A DNA stretch of 64,000 nt from an uncultured Gemmatimonadaceae bacterium (GTDB lineage: Bacteria; Gemmatimonadota; Gemmatimonadetes; Gemmatimonadales; Gemmatimonadaceae), in assembly GCA_963790305.1 (NCBI GenBank), contig CAWBOC010000005.1, positions 704,001-768,000 of the forward strand. The letters are read 5' to 3'. The notes under the pieces are model-generated. The model was not told the origin of the DNA and made no database searches. It saw nothing but the letters and a program-made list of their open reading frames with translations. Below, one piece after another: positions 15,657 through 57,536 of this stretch. Both the position numbers and the translations under genes were made by a program. Every line of letters starts with the position of its first letter. Positions within the stretch are counted from its first letter, which is position 1.

Positions 15657-15794
15657 GATGAAGAGCGTGGCGCGCGCAGTGGAAGGCGGTCGTCCCGGCG
15701 TAGTGTCTCTCTCTTGTGGGTCTGTGGCCGGGGATTCTATTTAGGCTTGTGCGTTTGAACAACGTCTCTCTGCTCCATTCGCGCAACGAGTTTG

Positions 15795-15889
15795 ACTGCA
15801 TCACCACAGAGGCATAGAGGGCACAGAGAACTTCACACGCTTTTTGGACGACCTCCTCTGTGCCCTCTGTGCCTCTGTGGTGATGCAGT
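15795..15889. repeat. Palindromic CACAGAGG-nonamer element
   Basis: ACTGCATCACCACAGAGGCA...TGCCTCTGTGGTGATGCAGT; same ends as 21632-21734. Confidence 0.9.
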
Positions 15890-15931
15890 TCGGCTCATTG
15901 CGAACGCGACCCGACCTACCGTCATCAGGTC

Positions 15932-21573: not shown

Positions 21574-21631
21574 GATTCGGGAAAGGCTGCGGTTTCCGAG
21601 AGTCTCGCGCAAGGGTCACGAACGAGGCCGA

Positions 21632-21734
21632 ACTGCATCACCACAGAGGCACGGAGGACACAGAGGAACCGCAAACTGCTCAAACAGCGGTTCGCGGTTC
21701 CTCTGTGTCCTCCGTGCCTCTGTGGTGATGCAGT
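21632..21734. repeat. Palindromic CACAGAGG-nonamer element
   Basis: ACTGCATCACCACAGAGGCACGGAGGACACAGAGGAACCGC / exact inverse arm. Confidence 0.9.
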
Positions 21735-21810
21735 CAGGCCCATGCGCGCCAGCCAAGCCGCCCCGAAGCACCCTTGCCCGCATCAGCGCCACCGCCACAA
21801 CCTCTACCGC

Positions 21811-25353: not shown

Positions 25354-26127
25354 ATGATGGAGCAGATTCGTACGCTGATCGTCGATGATGAGCCTCTGGC
25401 GCGCCAGCATCTGCGTGGCCTGCTCGCGGACGATCCCGACATCGCCGTGATCGGCGAGTGCGGCAACGGCCGCGACGCCGTGGAGGCGATTCGCGCCCAG
25501 CAGCCGTCGCTGGTGCTCCTGGACATCCAGATGCCCGAGCTCAATGGGCTGGCGGTCGTCGACGAGGTGGGGGCCGAGTCGATGCCGGCGACCATCTTCG
25601 TCACCGCGTTCGACGAATACGCGGTCAAGGCGTTCGACGCGCACGCGCTCGACTACGTGATGAAGCCGGTGAGCCGCGCCCGCTTCCATCAGGCCATCGA
25701 GCGCGCGAAGACGCAGCTGCGCGACCCGACGCCGGCGGCGCGTCCGCCGCTCGCGGCGCTGCTCGATCAGCTGCGCGTCGAGGGCACGGCGGTTCCGCGC
25801 CGCATCGCGCTCAAGCGTGATGGGAGGCTGCTCTTCGTGCGCATCGAGGACATCGACTGGATCGAGGCCGCTGATGACCACGTCGTGGTGCACGTCGGAC
25901 GGGAGCTGTACCGTCAGCGCGACACGCTCACCCGGCTCGAGCAGCGGCTGCCGCCGCACAAGTTCCTCCGCGTGCACCGCTCATCGATCGTCAACGTCGA
26001 TCGCATTCGCGAGATGCAGCCCTGGTTTCAGGGCGACTTCGTGCTGATTCTCGTCGACGGAACGCGGGTGACGACGGGGAGGAGCTATCGGGAGCGCGTG
26101 AGGGAGTTCATCGACCGGTCCATGTAG
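25354..26127 (+). CDS. LytTR family response regulator
   Basis: VDDEPLAR, LDIQMP, TAFDEYAV, FLRVHRSSIVN. Confidence 0.95.
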   Translation: MMEQIRTLIVDDEPLARQHLRGLLADDPDIAVIGECGNGRDAVEAIRAQQPSLVLLDIQMPELNGLAVVDEVGAESMPATIFVTAFDEYAVKAFDAHALDYVMKPVSRARFHQAIERAKTQLRDPTPAARPPLAALLDQLRVEGTAVPRRIALKRDGRLLFVRIEDIDWIEAADDHVVVHVGRELYRQRDTLTRLEQRLPPHKFLRVHRSSIVNVDRIREMQPWFQGDFVLILVDGTRVTTGRSYRERVREFIDRSM

Positions 26128-26253
26128 GGGTCGGGAGTCAGGAGTCAGGGGTCAGGGGGGGTCAGGGTGAAGGTTCGAGGGGACTGCTCGCGCAACTCCT
26201 GCAACCTCTCCCCTGCCACCCCCTGACCCCGGACTCCTGACTCCTGACCCCTA
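26125..26253. repeat. Inverted heptamer (GGAGTCA/GGGGTCA) palindromic element between convergent genes
   Basis: TAGGGGTCGGGAGTCAGGAGTCAGGGGTCAGGGG ... CCCCTGACCCCGGACTCCTGACTCCTGACCCCTA. Confidence 0.9.
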
Positions 26254-36537: not shown

Positions 36538-37607
36538 CTACTCGATGATGACCTTGGTGATGCGGCCGGTGGGGCCGACCGCCCAGCCCGCGCGCCCGCT
36601 CCGCGAGAATCCCACGCTCCAGTACGCGAGCGTATCGAGCCGGTTCCAGGAAGTCGCGTCGTCGGTGGACCAGTCCATTCCCCCTGGCCCCACCGCAATC
36701 AGCGCCGGTGTCCGCGGGACGTACGCAACGCCATACACCGGCCCCGCCATCGCCGGACGTCCCCCCAGCGTCCACGTGCGGCCCCCGTCGCCGCTGACCG
36801 CCACCCAATCGCCGCGCTCGTTAGGTCTTCCGACGGGACCGCCCATGGCGACGCCGTGCAACGTGTCGCGGAAGGCAATCGTCGCCGCACCCGCACCCTC
36901 GCCGGCTGACAGCGGCGTCAAGAACACGCTCCAGCTTCGCCCGTAGTCGGCCGTGTAGAGAATGCGGGACTCCGAGGGTGCATTGCCGGTGGGGATCCAG
37001 GCGCGGCCGCGTGGGCCGGTGATCACGCAGGTGCCGCTGGCGGCGAATGCGCCCTCTCCAGCCCGTGCTGGTGGGAGGGCATCGTCAGGCACGCGTGTCC
37101 AGGTACGCCCGCCGTCGCTCGTCGTCAGAATGTAGAAGCGCCCGTCCACCGCATCGCTGAAGGCGAGCCCGCGACGCGAGTCCCAGAAGTCGAGGCAATC
37201 AAAGAACCCACGGGGCTCCGCGTTGCGGAACTGCAGTGTCCACGACTGACCGCCGTTGCTCGTGTGGTAGATGCGTGAGCGATCACCATCGCCGGCCGCG
37301 AGCAGCCACGCGGTGCGCTCGTCGAGCGCGTAGACGTCGCGAAACTGAAGCGAATCAGCCTCGGGGACGACCGCCGAGCGCCAACTCTCCCCCCGTCGGT
37401 TGTGATCGCATACGTGCCGCGATGCCCACTCACCCACGCCACTCGCGCGGTCGGCGCACTCACCGCCTGAAGGAGCACGGTCGTTCCGCTGCGCTGCGCG
37501 GCGAGCACGGGTGGGCTGGTTGGCGCGCGGTCGAGCTCTGGCCCCGCCGAGCGGAAGCACGCCGCGACAAGGATCAGCGCTGGAATGCGGAGCAGTGTGG
37601 TATTCAC
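36538..37607 (-). CDS. BNR/Asp-box repeat (Ycf48-like) beta-propeller protein; frameshift near 37390
   Basis: Repeated T/S-x-DGG-x-(S/T)W motifs; AFAASGT. Confidence 0.85.
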
Positions 37608-37629
37608 CGTTTGGGAGTCGGGGTTACCT

Positions 37630-38195
37630 GCATCCAGGTTCAAAGTTGGGACGCGGATTGCGCGGATTCAGCGGATGACGCTGATGGATCAGTGAACGAT
37701 TTGCAATCGGCTCGCAATAACTTGGTGATTTGCCATTGCCCGATCTGAGTATCGTCTCGCATGACGAAAATCCAACTGCTTGAGGAACGGCTCACGCGGT
37801 CCGTTATTGGCGCCTTCTACGAGGTGGACAACACTCTTGGTTTTCGGCTTTCTCGAGCACGTCTATATCATGGCTCTCGAGCGCGAGCTACTCGAACGCG
37901 GGCATCGCGTAGCGCGTGAGGTGAGTACCCATGTGACGTACAAGGGACATGTCCTCGCTGTGCAACGAATCGATATGATCGTCGATGAGCGGCTCATCGT
38001 TGAGACGAAAGCGACATTCGAGACTCCGAAGGCAGCTCACCGGCAGCTCCTCAACTATCTCCGGGCGACGAACCTCGAAGTTGGCCTCTTGCTGCATTTT
38101 GGACTGGAGGCGCAATTCCATCGAGTCATTTCTACGAACAAGCGCAGTATTCCGCATGATCCCCTGAATCAGCGTTTCGTTTAAACCTGGATGCC
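37630..38195 (+). mobile_element. Putative autonomous element: repeat arm + GxxExxY gene + degenerate repeat arm
   Basis: Left GCATCCAGGTTCAAAGTTGGGACGCGGATT; right tccgcatgatcccctgaatcagcgt...tttaaacctggatgcc; visibly lower GC than flanks. Confidence 0.65.
37761..38184 (+). CDS. GxxExxY protein (PD-(D/E)XK nuclease-like); frameshift near 37842
   Basis: MTKIQLLEERLTRSVIGAFYEVDNTLG[F]GFLEHVY...RIDMIVDERLIVETK...QLLNYLRAT...GLLLHFG. Confidence 0.92.
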
Positions 38196-38215
38196 TTCGG
38201 CTGTCCGGCGGGCGA

Positions 38216-38414
38216 GCATCCAGGTTCAAAGGTGGGACGCGGATTACGCGGATCTAGCGGATCGCGCCGATTGTTCCTGGCGCATTGAGCACTCCTCTAC
38301 AGCCAAAAAAAACAAGCTCTTTGTCTCGCGCGTGGAAAGCTCTCGTCGGCAGGAGTTATTCGCGTAATCAGCTAAATCCGCGAAATCCGTGTCCCAACTT
38401 TGAACCTGGATGCC
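38216..38414. mobile_element. About 200-bp palindromic MITE/REPIN-like element (gene-less copy 2)
   Basis: GCATCCAGGTTCAAAGGTGGGACGCGGATT...AATCCGTGTCCCAACTTTGAACCTGGATGCC; interior (CTCCTCTACAG) alignable with 2557-2756. Confidence 0.8.
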
Positions 38415-38489
38415 AGAATGCCGACCAGCTCGTTGGAAGATGATGCCGACCATACCACAGAACGTCCAGAAACAACGCGCCCGGACTAG

Positions 38490-38726
38490 CTAATCAGCGC
38501 GCGGGGGACGGGTCTGGCGGTTCACCTCAGCCTCGAGGGTGCGCGCGGCGTTTTGCGCGCGGAGGCTGGCCTCGCGGAGCCGCTCCACGGCCACCGCCAA
38601 TCGCTCGAAGGCGACGCGTGCCCGCAACAGCGAGTCGCGCGCCGACAACAGGTCGGCGACCGTTGTGCGCACGTTCGGCGCAAGGAGGGCGTCTACGTCC
38701 TCGGGACGGAGCGGCTCGGTGGGCAT
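38490..38726 (-). CDS. Small hypothetical coiled-coil protein
   Basis: 78-aa ATG ORF downstream of ABC operon, heptad-like pattern. Confidence 0.5.
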   Translation of the reverse strand: MPTEPLRPEDVDALLAPNVRTTVADLLSARDSLLRARVAFERLAVAVERLREASLRAQNAARTLEAEVNRQTRPPRAD

Positions 38727-41544: not shown

Positions 41545-41650
41545 AGAGGCGCTAGAGGCGCTAAAGGCGCTAGAGGCGCTGAAGACGAAAACCCTTTAGC
41601 GCCTCTAGCGCCTTTAGCGCCTCTAGCGCCTCTCGCGCCTCTCGCGCCTC
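41545..41650. repeat. Palindromic TAGAGGCGC nonamer element between convergent genes
   Basis: About 4 units agaggcgct followed by about 6 inverted units agcgcctct, filling the gap between the two stops. Confidence 0.9.
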
Positions 41651-48865: not shown

Positions 48866-49594
48866 TCAGGTGTAAACCACACACCCCCGCTCCCTGAGCT
48901 CGTCCAGCCACGGCGTCTCTCCCAGACCGTTCCACCGCACGTCGAGCTTCTCCAGAGAGTGCAGCCCGCGGATCGCTTCGGGGAGGGAATCGAGCTGATT
49001 CTCGCGCAGGTCGAGGTGCATGAGCTGGCGCATATCGCCGATGGCGTCGGGGAGCGTCGTCAGGCGGTTGCCGCGCAGGCGCAGGTGGGTGACGCGATCG
49101 AGGCTGCGAATCGCGCGCGGCAAGGAGATGAGCGCGTTCCGGCCCAGGTGGAGCACCCGCAGGCTCGTCAGGCGGCCAATGGAATCGGGAAGCTCCTGGA
49201 GTGCGTTTCCGTCGAGGTGAAGCTCGCGCAGCGTCGCCAGCGCACCCATGGAGTACGGGAGAGACTTCAGGCCGTTGTCGTGCGCCCGGAGCTCCACGAG
49301 TGAGCCGAGAGCGCCGATCGTCTCCGGAAGCGCTGTGAGCGCGTTGCCGGCGACGTTGAGATAGGTCAGCGCCTTGAGCTTACCGATCGAGTCGGGCAGA
49401 CGTGCGAGCTTGTTGTTCGAGACGTACAGAAACTCGAGCGCGCGGAGCTCCCCAAGCGCTTCCGGCAGATCCGTCAGCTGATTGTAGCTGAGATCGAGCG
49501 TCGTGAGCTGGCGCTGCGACGTGACGTCGTCAGGCAGCGCGCTCAGCGAGCTGCCGTGCAGGAAGAGCCGTGTCGACTCGAAGTCGGCGGTCAC
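48866..49594 (-). CDS. Leucine-rich repeat protein
   Basis: About 9 repeats of LxxLxLxxNxLxxLPxxIG at 23-aa period. Confidence 0.95.
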   Translation of the reverse strand: MTADFESTRLFLHGSSLSALPDDVTSQRQLTTLDLSYNQLTDLPEALGELRALEFLYVSNNKLARLPDSIGKLKALTYLNVAGNALTALPETIGALGSLVELRAHDNGLKSLPYSMGALATLRELHLDGNALQELPDSIGRLTSLRVLHLGRNALISLPRAIRSLDRVTHLRLRGNRLTTLPDAIGDMRQLMHLDLRENQLDSLPEAIRGLHSLEKLDVRWNGLGETPWLDELRERGCVVYT

Positions 49595-50253
49595 TCCTCG
49601 TACTCGTCGGACCCCTGGACCCGGATGAACGACTGGATGTCGATCATGTCGCGCGGCTTCAGGTCCCGCACATCATCGCGCACCCTGTTGGCGAACGCCA
49701 GCAGGCTCGCGTAGGTCTTCCACTGTGGACGGGACTCATACTCGAACTCGCATCCATACTCCCGGGCGGCGATCCTGGTGACGTTGGGCTTGAGAAAGAT
49801 GTGCCGGTCGGGTGTCGCGAGGAAGCCGAACACGGTCACGATCGGCCAGGTCAGCACACGGGTCTGCTTGCGTGGAAGCTGGGAGACGACAGTGCACCAC
49901 TGCTCGAACTTCCGCTCTTCGCCTCCCCGGCCGTACAGGAACTCGTAGAGCCCCTCGGCGAACGCACGAGCGCCCGCTGGGGATTTGACGGCATCGCGAA
50001 GGGCCATCTTCTCGAAGGAAAAGAGAAGGTTCGTCCGGGATTCGATCTGGACCGCCCGCGCGGCCACCTCGCTGAAACGCCCCGAGCTCAGCTTGGCGCG
50101 GAAGGCGTTGCGACCAAGCGAGGCTTCCCAGCGCTCGTGCGCTTCCCACTTGTAGTTCCGCTCCCAGTCGAGGTAAGTCTCGTCGTGAAAGCCGTCGGGG
50201 AAGAAGCGCAGGAACTTGCGCCGGCACCGCGTCGCACTCGGCGCTCGCGTCAG
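49591..50253 (-). CDS. Conserved hypothetical protein (start uncertain, possibly CTG)
   Basis: FLRFFPDGFHDETYLDWERNYK...HIFLKP...PRDMIDIQSFI; GGAGG 5 nt upstream of CTG 50253. Confidence 0.75.
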   Translation of the reverse strand: MTRAPSATRCRRKFLRFFPDGFHDETYLDWERNYKWEAHERWEASLGRNAFRAKLSSGRFSEVAARAVQIESRTNLLFSFEKMALRDAVKSPAGARAFAEGLYEFLYGRGGEERKFEQWCTVVSQLPRKQTRVLTWPIVTVFGFLATPDRHIFLKPNVTRIAAREYGCEFEYESRPQWKTYASLLAFANRVRDDVRDLKPRDMIDIQSFIRVQGSDEYEE

Positions 50254-57387: not shown

Positions 57388-57536
57388 AAAGCGGTCGCAC
57401 AGAGACACACAGAGACATGGCACAGAGACTCACAGAGGAGCTGCACACGGCAACATGCCTTGGAAAAGCTTTTGCCGTTGACGTTCCTCGGTGTGTCTCT
57501 GTGCCATGTCTCTGTGTGTCTCTGTGCCACCGCTTT
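57388..57536. repeat. Palindromic CACAGAGA tandem element
   Basis: aaagcggtcgcacagagacacacagagacatggcacagagac ... gtctctgtgccatgtctctgtgtgtctctgtgccaccgcttt. Confidence 0.9.

Follow-up and report, generated by a model that had tools for sequence, protein, structure and literature searches.

The window, meaning the whole stretch of 64,000 nucleotides analyzed here (G000:C5:704001-768000, where G000 is the genome of an uncultured Gemmatimonadaceae bacterium), carries a GxxExxY gene enclosed by inverted arms, hereafter the cassette, as well as gene-less palindromes. The features are as follows.

Positions 37630 to 37690, plus strand: left arm of the cassette, repeat family A; a terminal 16-mer, then three to four CGGAT-type units with a 9-nt period.
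Positions 37761 to 38184, plus strand: GxxExxY gene (TIGR04256 / PF13366 PDDEXK_3), frameshifted as assembled.
Positions 38143 to 38195, minus strand: degenerate right arm, within which the gene's final codons and its stop fall.
Positions 38216 to 38414, unstranded: gene-less family-A palindrome beside the cassette, shared in part with congener G004.
Positions 2557 to 2756, unstranded: gene-less family-A palindrome; the site also holds family A in G004 and G008 and a decayed copy in G002, whereas in G001 and G006 a different repeat family has taken its place.
Positions 15782 to 15902, unstranded: gene-less family-B palindrome built of CACAGAG units; the word of this family also flanks the GxxExxY gene at G000:C5:638951-639298.
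Positions 21626 to 21740, unstranded: second gene-less family-B palindrome.
Positions 26125 to 26253, unstranded: gene-less palindrome with 7-nt units, whose word flanks the four-helix-bundle gene at G000:C5:70671-70991.
Positions 41545 to 41650, unstranded: gene-less palindrome with 9-nt units, whose word flanks the four-helix-bundle gene at G000:C9:787730-787987.
Positions 57388 to 57536, unstranded: gene-less family-E palindrome made of AG-type units, with 5 sites and no cognate gene found in G000.

The initial annotation placed the gene between a left arm starting at 37630 and a degenerate right arm ending at 38195, and both arms are present in the sequence, with the final codons and stop of the gene (38182 to 38184) lying within the right arm as it described. 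The left arm is 84% identical to the arm of the copy at 2557, and its 9-nt tandem period also occurs in sister copies. The right arm matches its own left arm with an identity of 0.67 in G000, compared to 0.81 to 0.89 in the congeners G001, G002, G007, and G008, which hints at some decay of the G000 cassette. The gene is also more AT-rich than its surroundings, as had been noted, with a GC content of 0.54, whereas the flanking genes have 0.70 and 0.67 and the window as a whole has 0.66. The cassette is flanked by protein genes and not by an rRNA helix. In G001, G002, G006, and G007 (loci L053, L054, L057, and L058), an additional gene of ~1.1 kb lies between the gene for a BNR-repeat protein and the cassette site; it is absent in G000, G003, G004, and G008.

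The gene had been presented as one open reading frame from 37761 to 38184, a reading that we had to correct, since the frame of these 424 nt is broken by one surplus base within a stretch of T's around 37838 to 37841. The surplus base is absent from a 179-nt short-read contig of another sample, which has one other difference, and likewise from the congeners, so that the frameshift is likely an assembly error, albeit unproven for this strain. The BNR-repeat protein gene (36538 to 37623 of the window, minus strand) is also frameshifted in the assembly, near 37388, where a second short-read contig supplies the missing base. The assembly thus holds single-base errors, and the GxxExxY gene of the window is probably intact in nature. 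No transposase was found among the 57 ORFs of the window scanned (E ≤ 1e-8), in agreement with the initial annotation, and the scanned ORFs included no CRISPR genes. A search for a sigma-70-like promoter found none, and there was no Rfam match over positions 37400 to 38600.

The assignment of the encoded protein to the GxxExxY family was borne out: the 3' frame in the window scores 88.8 bits against TIGR04256 (cut-off, 35) and P0001, the intact orthologue from congener G004, scores 112 bits, PF13366 being matched as well. PDDEXK_3 is the only Pfam domain found in the protein, with no GIY-YIG domain (cd10448). The D...ETK motif is in place in the window gene, and the proposed membership of the PD-(D/E)XK superfamily agrees with a model of P0001 (pLDDT, 87.8), in which a restriction-like core fold is combined with conserved acidic residues and a lysine; the predicted fold is thus PD-(D/E)XK and not HUH/Y1. 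The best Foldseek match of the model is Cas4 SSO0001 (E, 6.7e-4; TM, 0.54). The VIA comparisons gave Z values that are middling and are evidence of fold alone: 8.3 with BpuSI (rmsd, 2.9; 95 residues aligned), 8.0 with SSO0001 (rmsd, 5.1; 105 aligned), and 6.9 with Hjc (rmsd, 3.3; 85 aligned). Residues E32, D71, E81, K83, and Q95 are retained in 133 to 135 of 135 homologues, and the E, D, ExK, and QxxxY residues of P0001 are ones that we take to be Cas4/RecB-like motifs. Based on the in silico fold and the conserved active-site residues, GxxExxY is a predicted single-domain nuclease of the Cas4/RecB-like PD-(D/E)XK type. P0001 has the core fold in common with Cas4/RecB-like nucleases (SSO0001, 4ic1) but differs from Cas4 in its length of only ~140 residues, in the lack of a cysteine cluster, in an identity of just 20%, and in the lack of CRISPR genes in the window. 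PADLOC returned only weak Cas4 matches, and no sequence homologue was found in the PDB.

GxxExxY genes occur in 55 of 151 genomes of the phylum. All six pairs among four intact congeneric orthologues have dN/dS values of 0.05 to 0.13, showing that the cassette gene is under purifying selection. Concerning function, a table in PMC3424549 enters PDDEXK_3 as "Unknown," and the passage on GxxExxY in PMC8934634 concerns a gene beside a reverse transcriptase. We found no mention of TIGR04256 in the full-text literature, from which subscription journals are mostly absent.

The two gene-less family-A copies reported at 38216 to 38414 and 2557 to 2756 exist and are 77% identical to each other, and both fold as DNA hairpins (z = -9.4 and -16.2 versus 200 shuffles). 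Their 16-nt end pattern is found 52 times in G000, compared to 0 times for the reversed control, and the arms and copies are therefore non-random, far above chance. A genome-wide count of copies yielded 22 complete gene-less family-A elements of 180 to 217 bp, with a median pairwise identity of 0.775 and a maximum of 0.946. Their arms consist of the terminal 16-mer and CGGAT-type units with a 9-nt period, and they enclose a conserved, polar inner core. It had been suggested that the gene replaces the hairpin loop, which is true insofar as the outer 55 to 60 nt are common to both kinds of element; however, nothing in the interior of the cassette matches the polar core of ~85 nt in both window copies, and the gene-less copies thus form a population of their own. 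With the ends as we set them, none of the 22 copies is abutted by a direct repeat of 2 to 10 nt, but the true ends may lie further out.

Homogenization between the two arms of single gene-less copies was not seen in G000 (identity of 0.839 within copies and 0.825 between copies) and was modest in congeners, whereas a cassette arm has its own partner as best match in G001, G007, and G008; in G002 the partner ties with another arm, and in G000 it is not the best match. An outer end motif common to different families was found in some copies only, and the idea was dropped. Some elements (L119 in G002:C55, L122, L129, and positions 2757 to 2780 of the window) have tandem extra copies of the terminal 16 to 23 nt on their outside, up to three per end, which suggests that events may have occurred repeatedly at the element's own ends. 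Minimal palindromes of 38 to 39 bp, made of two termini only, were seen at G000:C9:684479-684516 and at L109; their sites hold a full element in a congener or in G000, and they are possibly deletion scars. At L086, L097, L101, and L102, family-A elements are nested in hairpins of a four-helix-bundle family, beside a terminator-like stem. In the window, a gene for a leucine-rich-repeat protein (48869 to 49672, minus strand) adjoins a gene-less palindrome.

The cassette lies at the same locus in five of eight congeners. The gene is intact and has both arms in G001, G002, and G007; it is intact in G004, where the right arm is merged with the adjoining gene-less copy, and it is frameshifted in G008. 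The locus holds a gene-less palindrome with other ends in G006 and only an arm-like remnant in G003, while the G005 contig stops short of the site. G003, which has no cassette, is the sole congener of the eight without the family-A end pattern, whereas the incomplete assembly of G005 has 27 matches to the pattern and no gene found. The cassette gene thus keeps one locus for the life of the genus, between arms carrying its cognate word. None of 23 paralogue pairs from nine genomes exceeds 88% nucleotide identity, and P0001 has matches in 8 of 72,556 plasmids and in none of 50,697 phages. This fixed-locus, single-copy profile resembles what is reported for RAYTs and not that of insertion sequences. 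In deeper time the cassettes did move, as the 120 loci with enough flank fall into 75 gene neighborhoods. The congeneric GxxExxY genes L063, L064, and L071 form a small clade with a common locus and no detectable arms, and they are possibly fully domesticated.

The palindromes, for their part, turn over between congeners, as seen from their presence or absence and from family swaps at congener sites. Of 54 congener loci that we fetched, 14 lacked paired ends and 1 was short of flank; from the remaining 39 we obtained 41 elements: 15 with a family-A copy in G000 too, 15 without (at 12 distinct G000 sites), and 11 without collinear flanks. Half of the 30 elements with collinear flanks thus have no family-A copy in G000, but no clean empty-site junction could be read at flank identities of 76 to 90%. 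About 9 of the 12 G000 sites carry, as judged by eye, a hairpin of another family.

The cassette has counterparts elsewhere in G000. The genome contains four GxxExxY genes and six four-helix-bundle genes, all within arms of ten different repeat families, each of which also has gene-less copies; for the GxxExxY gene at C5:72, the upstream flank is cut by the contig start. Counting cassette sites, the GxxExxY words occur at 28, 33, 18, and 8 sites genome-wide, and the four-helix-bundle words at 100, 20, 114, 15, 54, and 114 sites, the count of 15 (family k) being unreliable given a control of 11. All ten cassette genes have a low GC content (0.53 to 0.63), and the four-helix-bundle gene of the cassette at G000:C10:203200-203840 appears split into two frames. 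Four small families (5, 3, 7, and 19 sites) have no gene that we could find. In relatives, four-helix-bundle genes have arms at 25 of 29 scored loci, versus 3.6% of mismatched pairs, one locus having been dropped for a short flank. The four-helix-bundle proteins have no known nuclease activity, yet their genes share the layout of the GxxExxY cassettes and have larger repeat families in G000; gene and repeat may therefore be linked by something other than cutting, and caution is in order. The four-helix protein matches the XCC0516 structure and, weakly and below the cut-off, Avd; the latter likeness prompted us to consider a retro-mechanism, which gained no support, since G000, a genome 94% complete, has no reverse transcriptase match (RVT_1), and it likewise has none to Y1_Tnp (PF01797), IS110, or DUF559. 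G000 has two GIY-YIG matches, located elsewhere in long frames. Two 1.47-kb units with family-A ends (C12:2440-3911 and C7:4640-6112) were considered as autonomous copies, but each proved to have an IS3-like element inserted into its loop. G000 has three IS3-like copies in total, the third being C10:1-1361, and every one of them lies inside a family-A palindrome; those on C12 and C7 have identical flanks and insertion points with the IS in opposite orientations, which points to two strains or an assembly duplicate.

Arms flank the majority of the GxxExxY loci sampled. From 160 matches we kept 135 loci, after dropping 25 (9 with a short flank, 8 duplicates, and 8 partial), and 82 of them have arms (inverted-arm score of 18 or more), the corresponding rates being 1% for mismatched pairs (n = 1500) and 0% for random windows (n = 1500); the other 53 score under the threshold, and without L023, from G015, arms are found at 81 of 134 loci. 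The sample leans to the focal clade, since 80 loci were fetched by their likeness to P0001. A co-phylogeny of protein and repeat, which the initial annotation had suggested testing, is supported by a FastTree tree, on which repeat type follows clade. Of the 61 rows that could be given an arm label, those on the 44-row side end in AG in 21 of 22 cases, and those on the 91-row side, which takes in records from Acidobacteriota, Chloroflexota, Bacteroidota, Planctomycetota, and Pseudomonadota, end in AT in all 39. The labels change 11 times on the tree, a bare count with no shuffled control beside it, and a match between arm and clade is also expected from plain linkage.

Repeat type also follows protein clade at the level of whole genomes. 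Among 121 genomes of the family, at least 10 CGGAT-array matches were found in 30 of 61 genomes with a focal-clade gene (28 of 59 when G000 and G015 are left out) and in 3 of 60 without. We then crossed the two clades in 119 genomes, leaving out G000 and G015 and taking the focal clade as the AT clade. Genomes with the AT clade only (30) are rich in AT-type repeats, that is, CGGAT arrays, in 14 cases and in AG-type repeats in 4, whereas those with the AG clade only (21) are AT-rich in 1 case and AG-rich in 11; with both clades (29 genomes) the numbers are 14 and 16, and with neither (39 genomes) 2 and 1. The Fisher P values of 0.0014 and 0.0044 are overstated, the genomes being kin, and the clade calls rest on E-values against single proteins, with the reversed control of the AG pattern non-zero in some genomes. 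Within-genus contrasts gave 7 for, 3 against, and 1 tie. CGGAT arrays without a TIGR04256 match were seen in G208, G245, and G109, which are incomplete assemblies. Of note, G183 and G220, from one genus, have 686 and 413 CGGAT-array matches, about 10 times the G000 count.

Altogether, a partnership between gene and repeat is supported by the arms, by the match of clade and word on the tree and across genomes, and by presence and absence between congeners. We lean, with somewhat more confidence than doubt, toward a domesticated nuclease/hairpin pair that would work like Ssn/NTS or RAYT/REPIN and not like an insertion sequence. The initial annotation had drawn an analogy to both IS/MITE and RAYT/REPIN pairs; the latter fits, whereas the former fails on the shared locus in five of eight congeners, the low dN/dS, the lack of paralogues above 88% identity and of target duplications, the rarity on plasmids, and the lack of matches in phages. 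We propose that the GxxExxY protein would recognize the 9-nt-spaced CGGAT units on an extruded or single-stranded hairpin and nick in or beside it, and that host repair of such nicks might occasionally copy the ~200-bp palindrome to another intergenic site, where it would often enter or replace an older hairpin. Every paralogue would maintain its own repeat population, which would fade once the gene is lost. To our knowledge, PD-(D/E)XK nucleases have no strand-transfer step.

Closest to this proposal are the Ssn nucleases with their NTS/SRM hairpins, whose small genes are, in the account of Chenal et al. (2025; PMC11893778), flanked by their own hairpins, which the proteins cut. A small single-domain nuclease gene with its own flanking hairpins, many dispersed gene-less copies, and homologue-specific variants is common to both systems, and cognate hairpins do flank the GxxExxY gene and also occur at dispersed sites. 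Two-sided flanking is given there for 42% of Ssn homologues, versus 61% here by a different test. The differences are that Ssn is a GIY-YIG and GxxExxY a PD-(D/E)XK protein; that SRMs measure 20 to 50 nt, whereas the arms here measure 55 to 100 nt and are built of tandem 8- to 10-nt units in doublets of ~200 bp; and that site-specific cleavage of single-stranded DNA is demonstrated for Ssn (PMC11893778), whereas GxxExxY is a predicted nuclease only. With RAYT/REPIN, as described by Bertels and Rainey (10.1101/2021.07.10.451892), the system shares a single-copy gene that is inherited vertically, stays at one site, and is seldom found on plasmids, and hairpin doublets that turn over slowly and differ in presence between kin; here too there is one gene per repeat family, at the same locus in kin and rare on mobile DNA. 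RAYTs, however, are HUH/Y1 transposases able to transfer strands (10.1101/2021.07.10.451892), and unlike in RAYT/REPIN, no GTAG/CGTC tag, the type of repeat covered in PMC3733652, is apparent by eye at the family-A ends. We found no description of a pairing of GxxExxY or four-helix-bundle genes with palindromes in the full-text literature, in which subscription journals are mostly outside the scope. Since a nuclease with a cognate hairpin is of an already known kind, what is new here is the PD-(D/E)XK fold and the tandem-unit arms, to which the locus adds a genome with ten pairs and a cross test of clade by word.

Other explanations have to be weighed against the nuclease/hairpin pair. The shared job of the GxxExxY and four-helix-bundle proteins could be binding and not cutting, each reading its tandem word on a DNA or RNA hairpin, with one host process, or one protein for all families, spreading the hairpins. 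The one-to-one assortment of ten genes, of two unrelated folds, with ten repeat families in one genome speaks for this idea, as do the hairpins of different families that occupy or nest in the same congener sites, the lack of Y1 transposase, reverse transcriptase, IS110, and DUF559 matches in the 94% complete genome, and the resemblance of the four-helix protein to XCC0516 and weakly to Avd. The near-invariant catalytic residues nevertheless point to real hydrolysis, and the genome-level match of repeat and clade requires specificity per clade, so that we regard binding alone as possible but rather improbable. It is unlikely that the elements resemble the intervening sequences (IVS) of 23S rRNA, RNase III cutting the long stem from transcripts and thereby making insertions tolerable, with the gene as cargo and the gene-less copies as cassette left-overs. 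ORF-bearing IVS (S23p) do consist of terminal inverted repeats around one small gene, which encodes a four-helix bundle, and RNase III does remove them (PMC4990558); likewise, the stems here are long and stable; the protein family of the IVS is also the one that fills the six sister cassettes of G000. However, IVS sit in rRNA helices (PMC4990558), whereas these cassettes lie between protein genes, as do the gene-less copies, which form dispersed families and have a conserved polar core unlike the cassette interior, and excision would explain neither the spread nor the clade-specific words.

We consider an active autonomous/non-autonomous IS/MITE pair, with the cassette as the mobile unit, to be quite improbable. 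Gene-bearing and gene-less units do have terminal inverted repeats in common, as in IS/MITE pairs, all ten cassette genes have a low GC content, and the 75 neighborhoods of the 120 loci indicate that cassettes moved over long times. Yet there is no transposase fold, the locus is fixed within the genus, no paralogue pair (23 pairs, nine genomes) exceeds 88% identity and no recent gene-bearing copies were seen, the 22 gene-less copies show no target duplication and a median identity of just 77.5%, and matches are rare on plasmids and nil in phages. Least probable of all, to the point that we give it hardly any weight, is the spread of the palindromes by some enzyme unrelated to the cassettes, for example the IS3 transposase, with small genes landing in them by chance. 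The location of all three IS3-like copies within family-A elements would fit, but the IS has ends of its own that differ from the family-A ends, congeners hold the same element without the IS (L085, L103, and L111), and no pairing of clades with words would be expected if genes landed at random.

If the nuclease/hairpin pair is taken further, the cassettes could represent a class of transposase-free bacterial repeat replicators. Two unrelated small proteins, one a Cas4-like nuclease and the other a four-helix ring similar to Avd, would then recognize a single tandem word apiece on a hairpin, with ten orthogonal pairs in one genome maintaining several hundred palindromes. The nucleases would constitute a naturally occurring set of word-specific enzymes of ~140 residues that cut hairpins, and the palindromes would spread by a new route. 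We put this forward as a speculation that we consider rather improbable. The correspondence of clade and word gives the GxxExxY family a specific candidate substrate, and the four paralogues of G000, each with its own word, provide a built-in specificity control. Should the cognate hairpins be cut, PD-(D/E)XK would be the third fold to pair with bacterial palindromic repeats, after HUH (RAYT) and GIY-YIG (Ssn), and the pairing would explain why intergenic hairpins abound in a genome in which no RAYT was found. The four-helix-bundle cassettes, in turn, bear on the old question of the role of IVS-encoded proteins.
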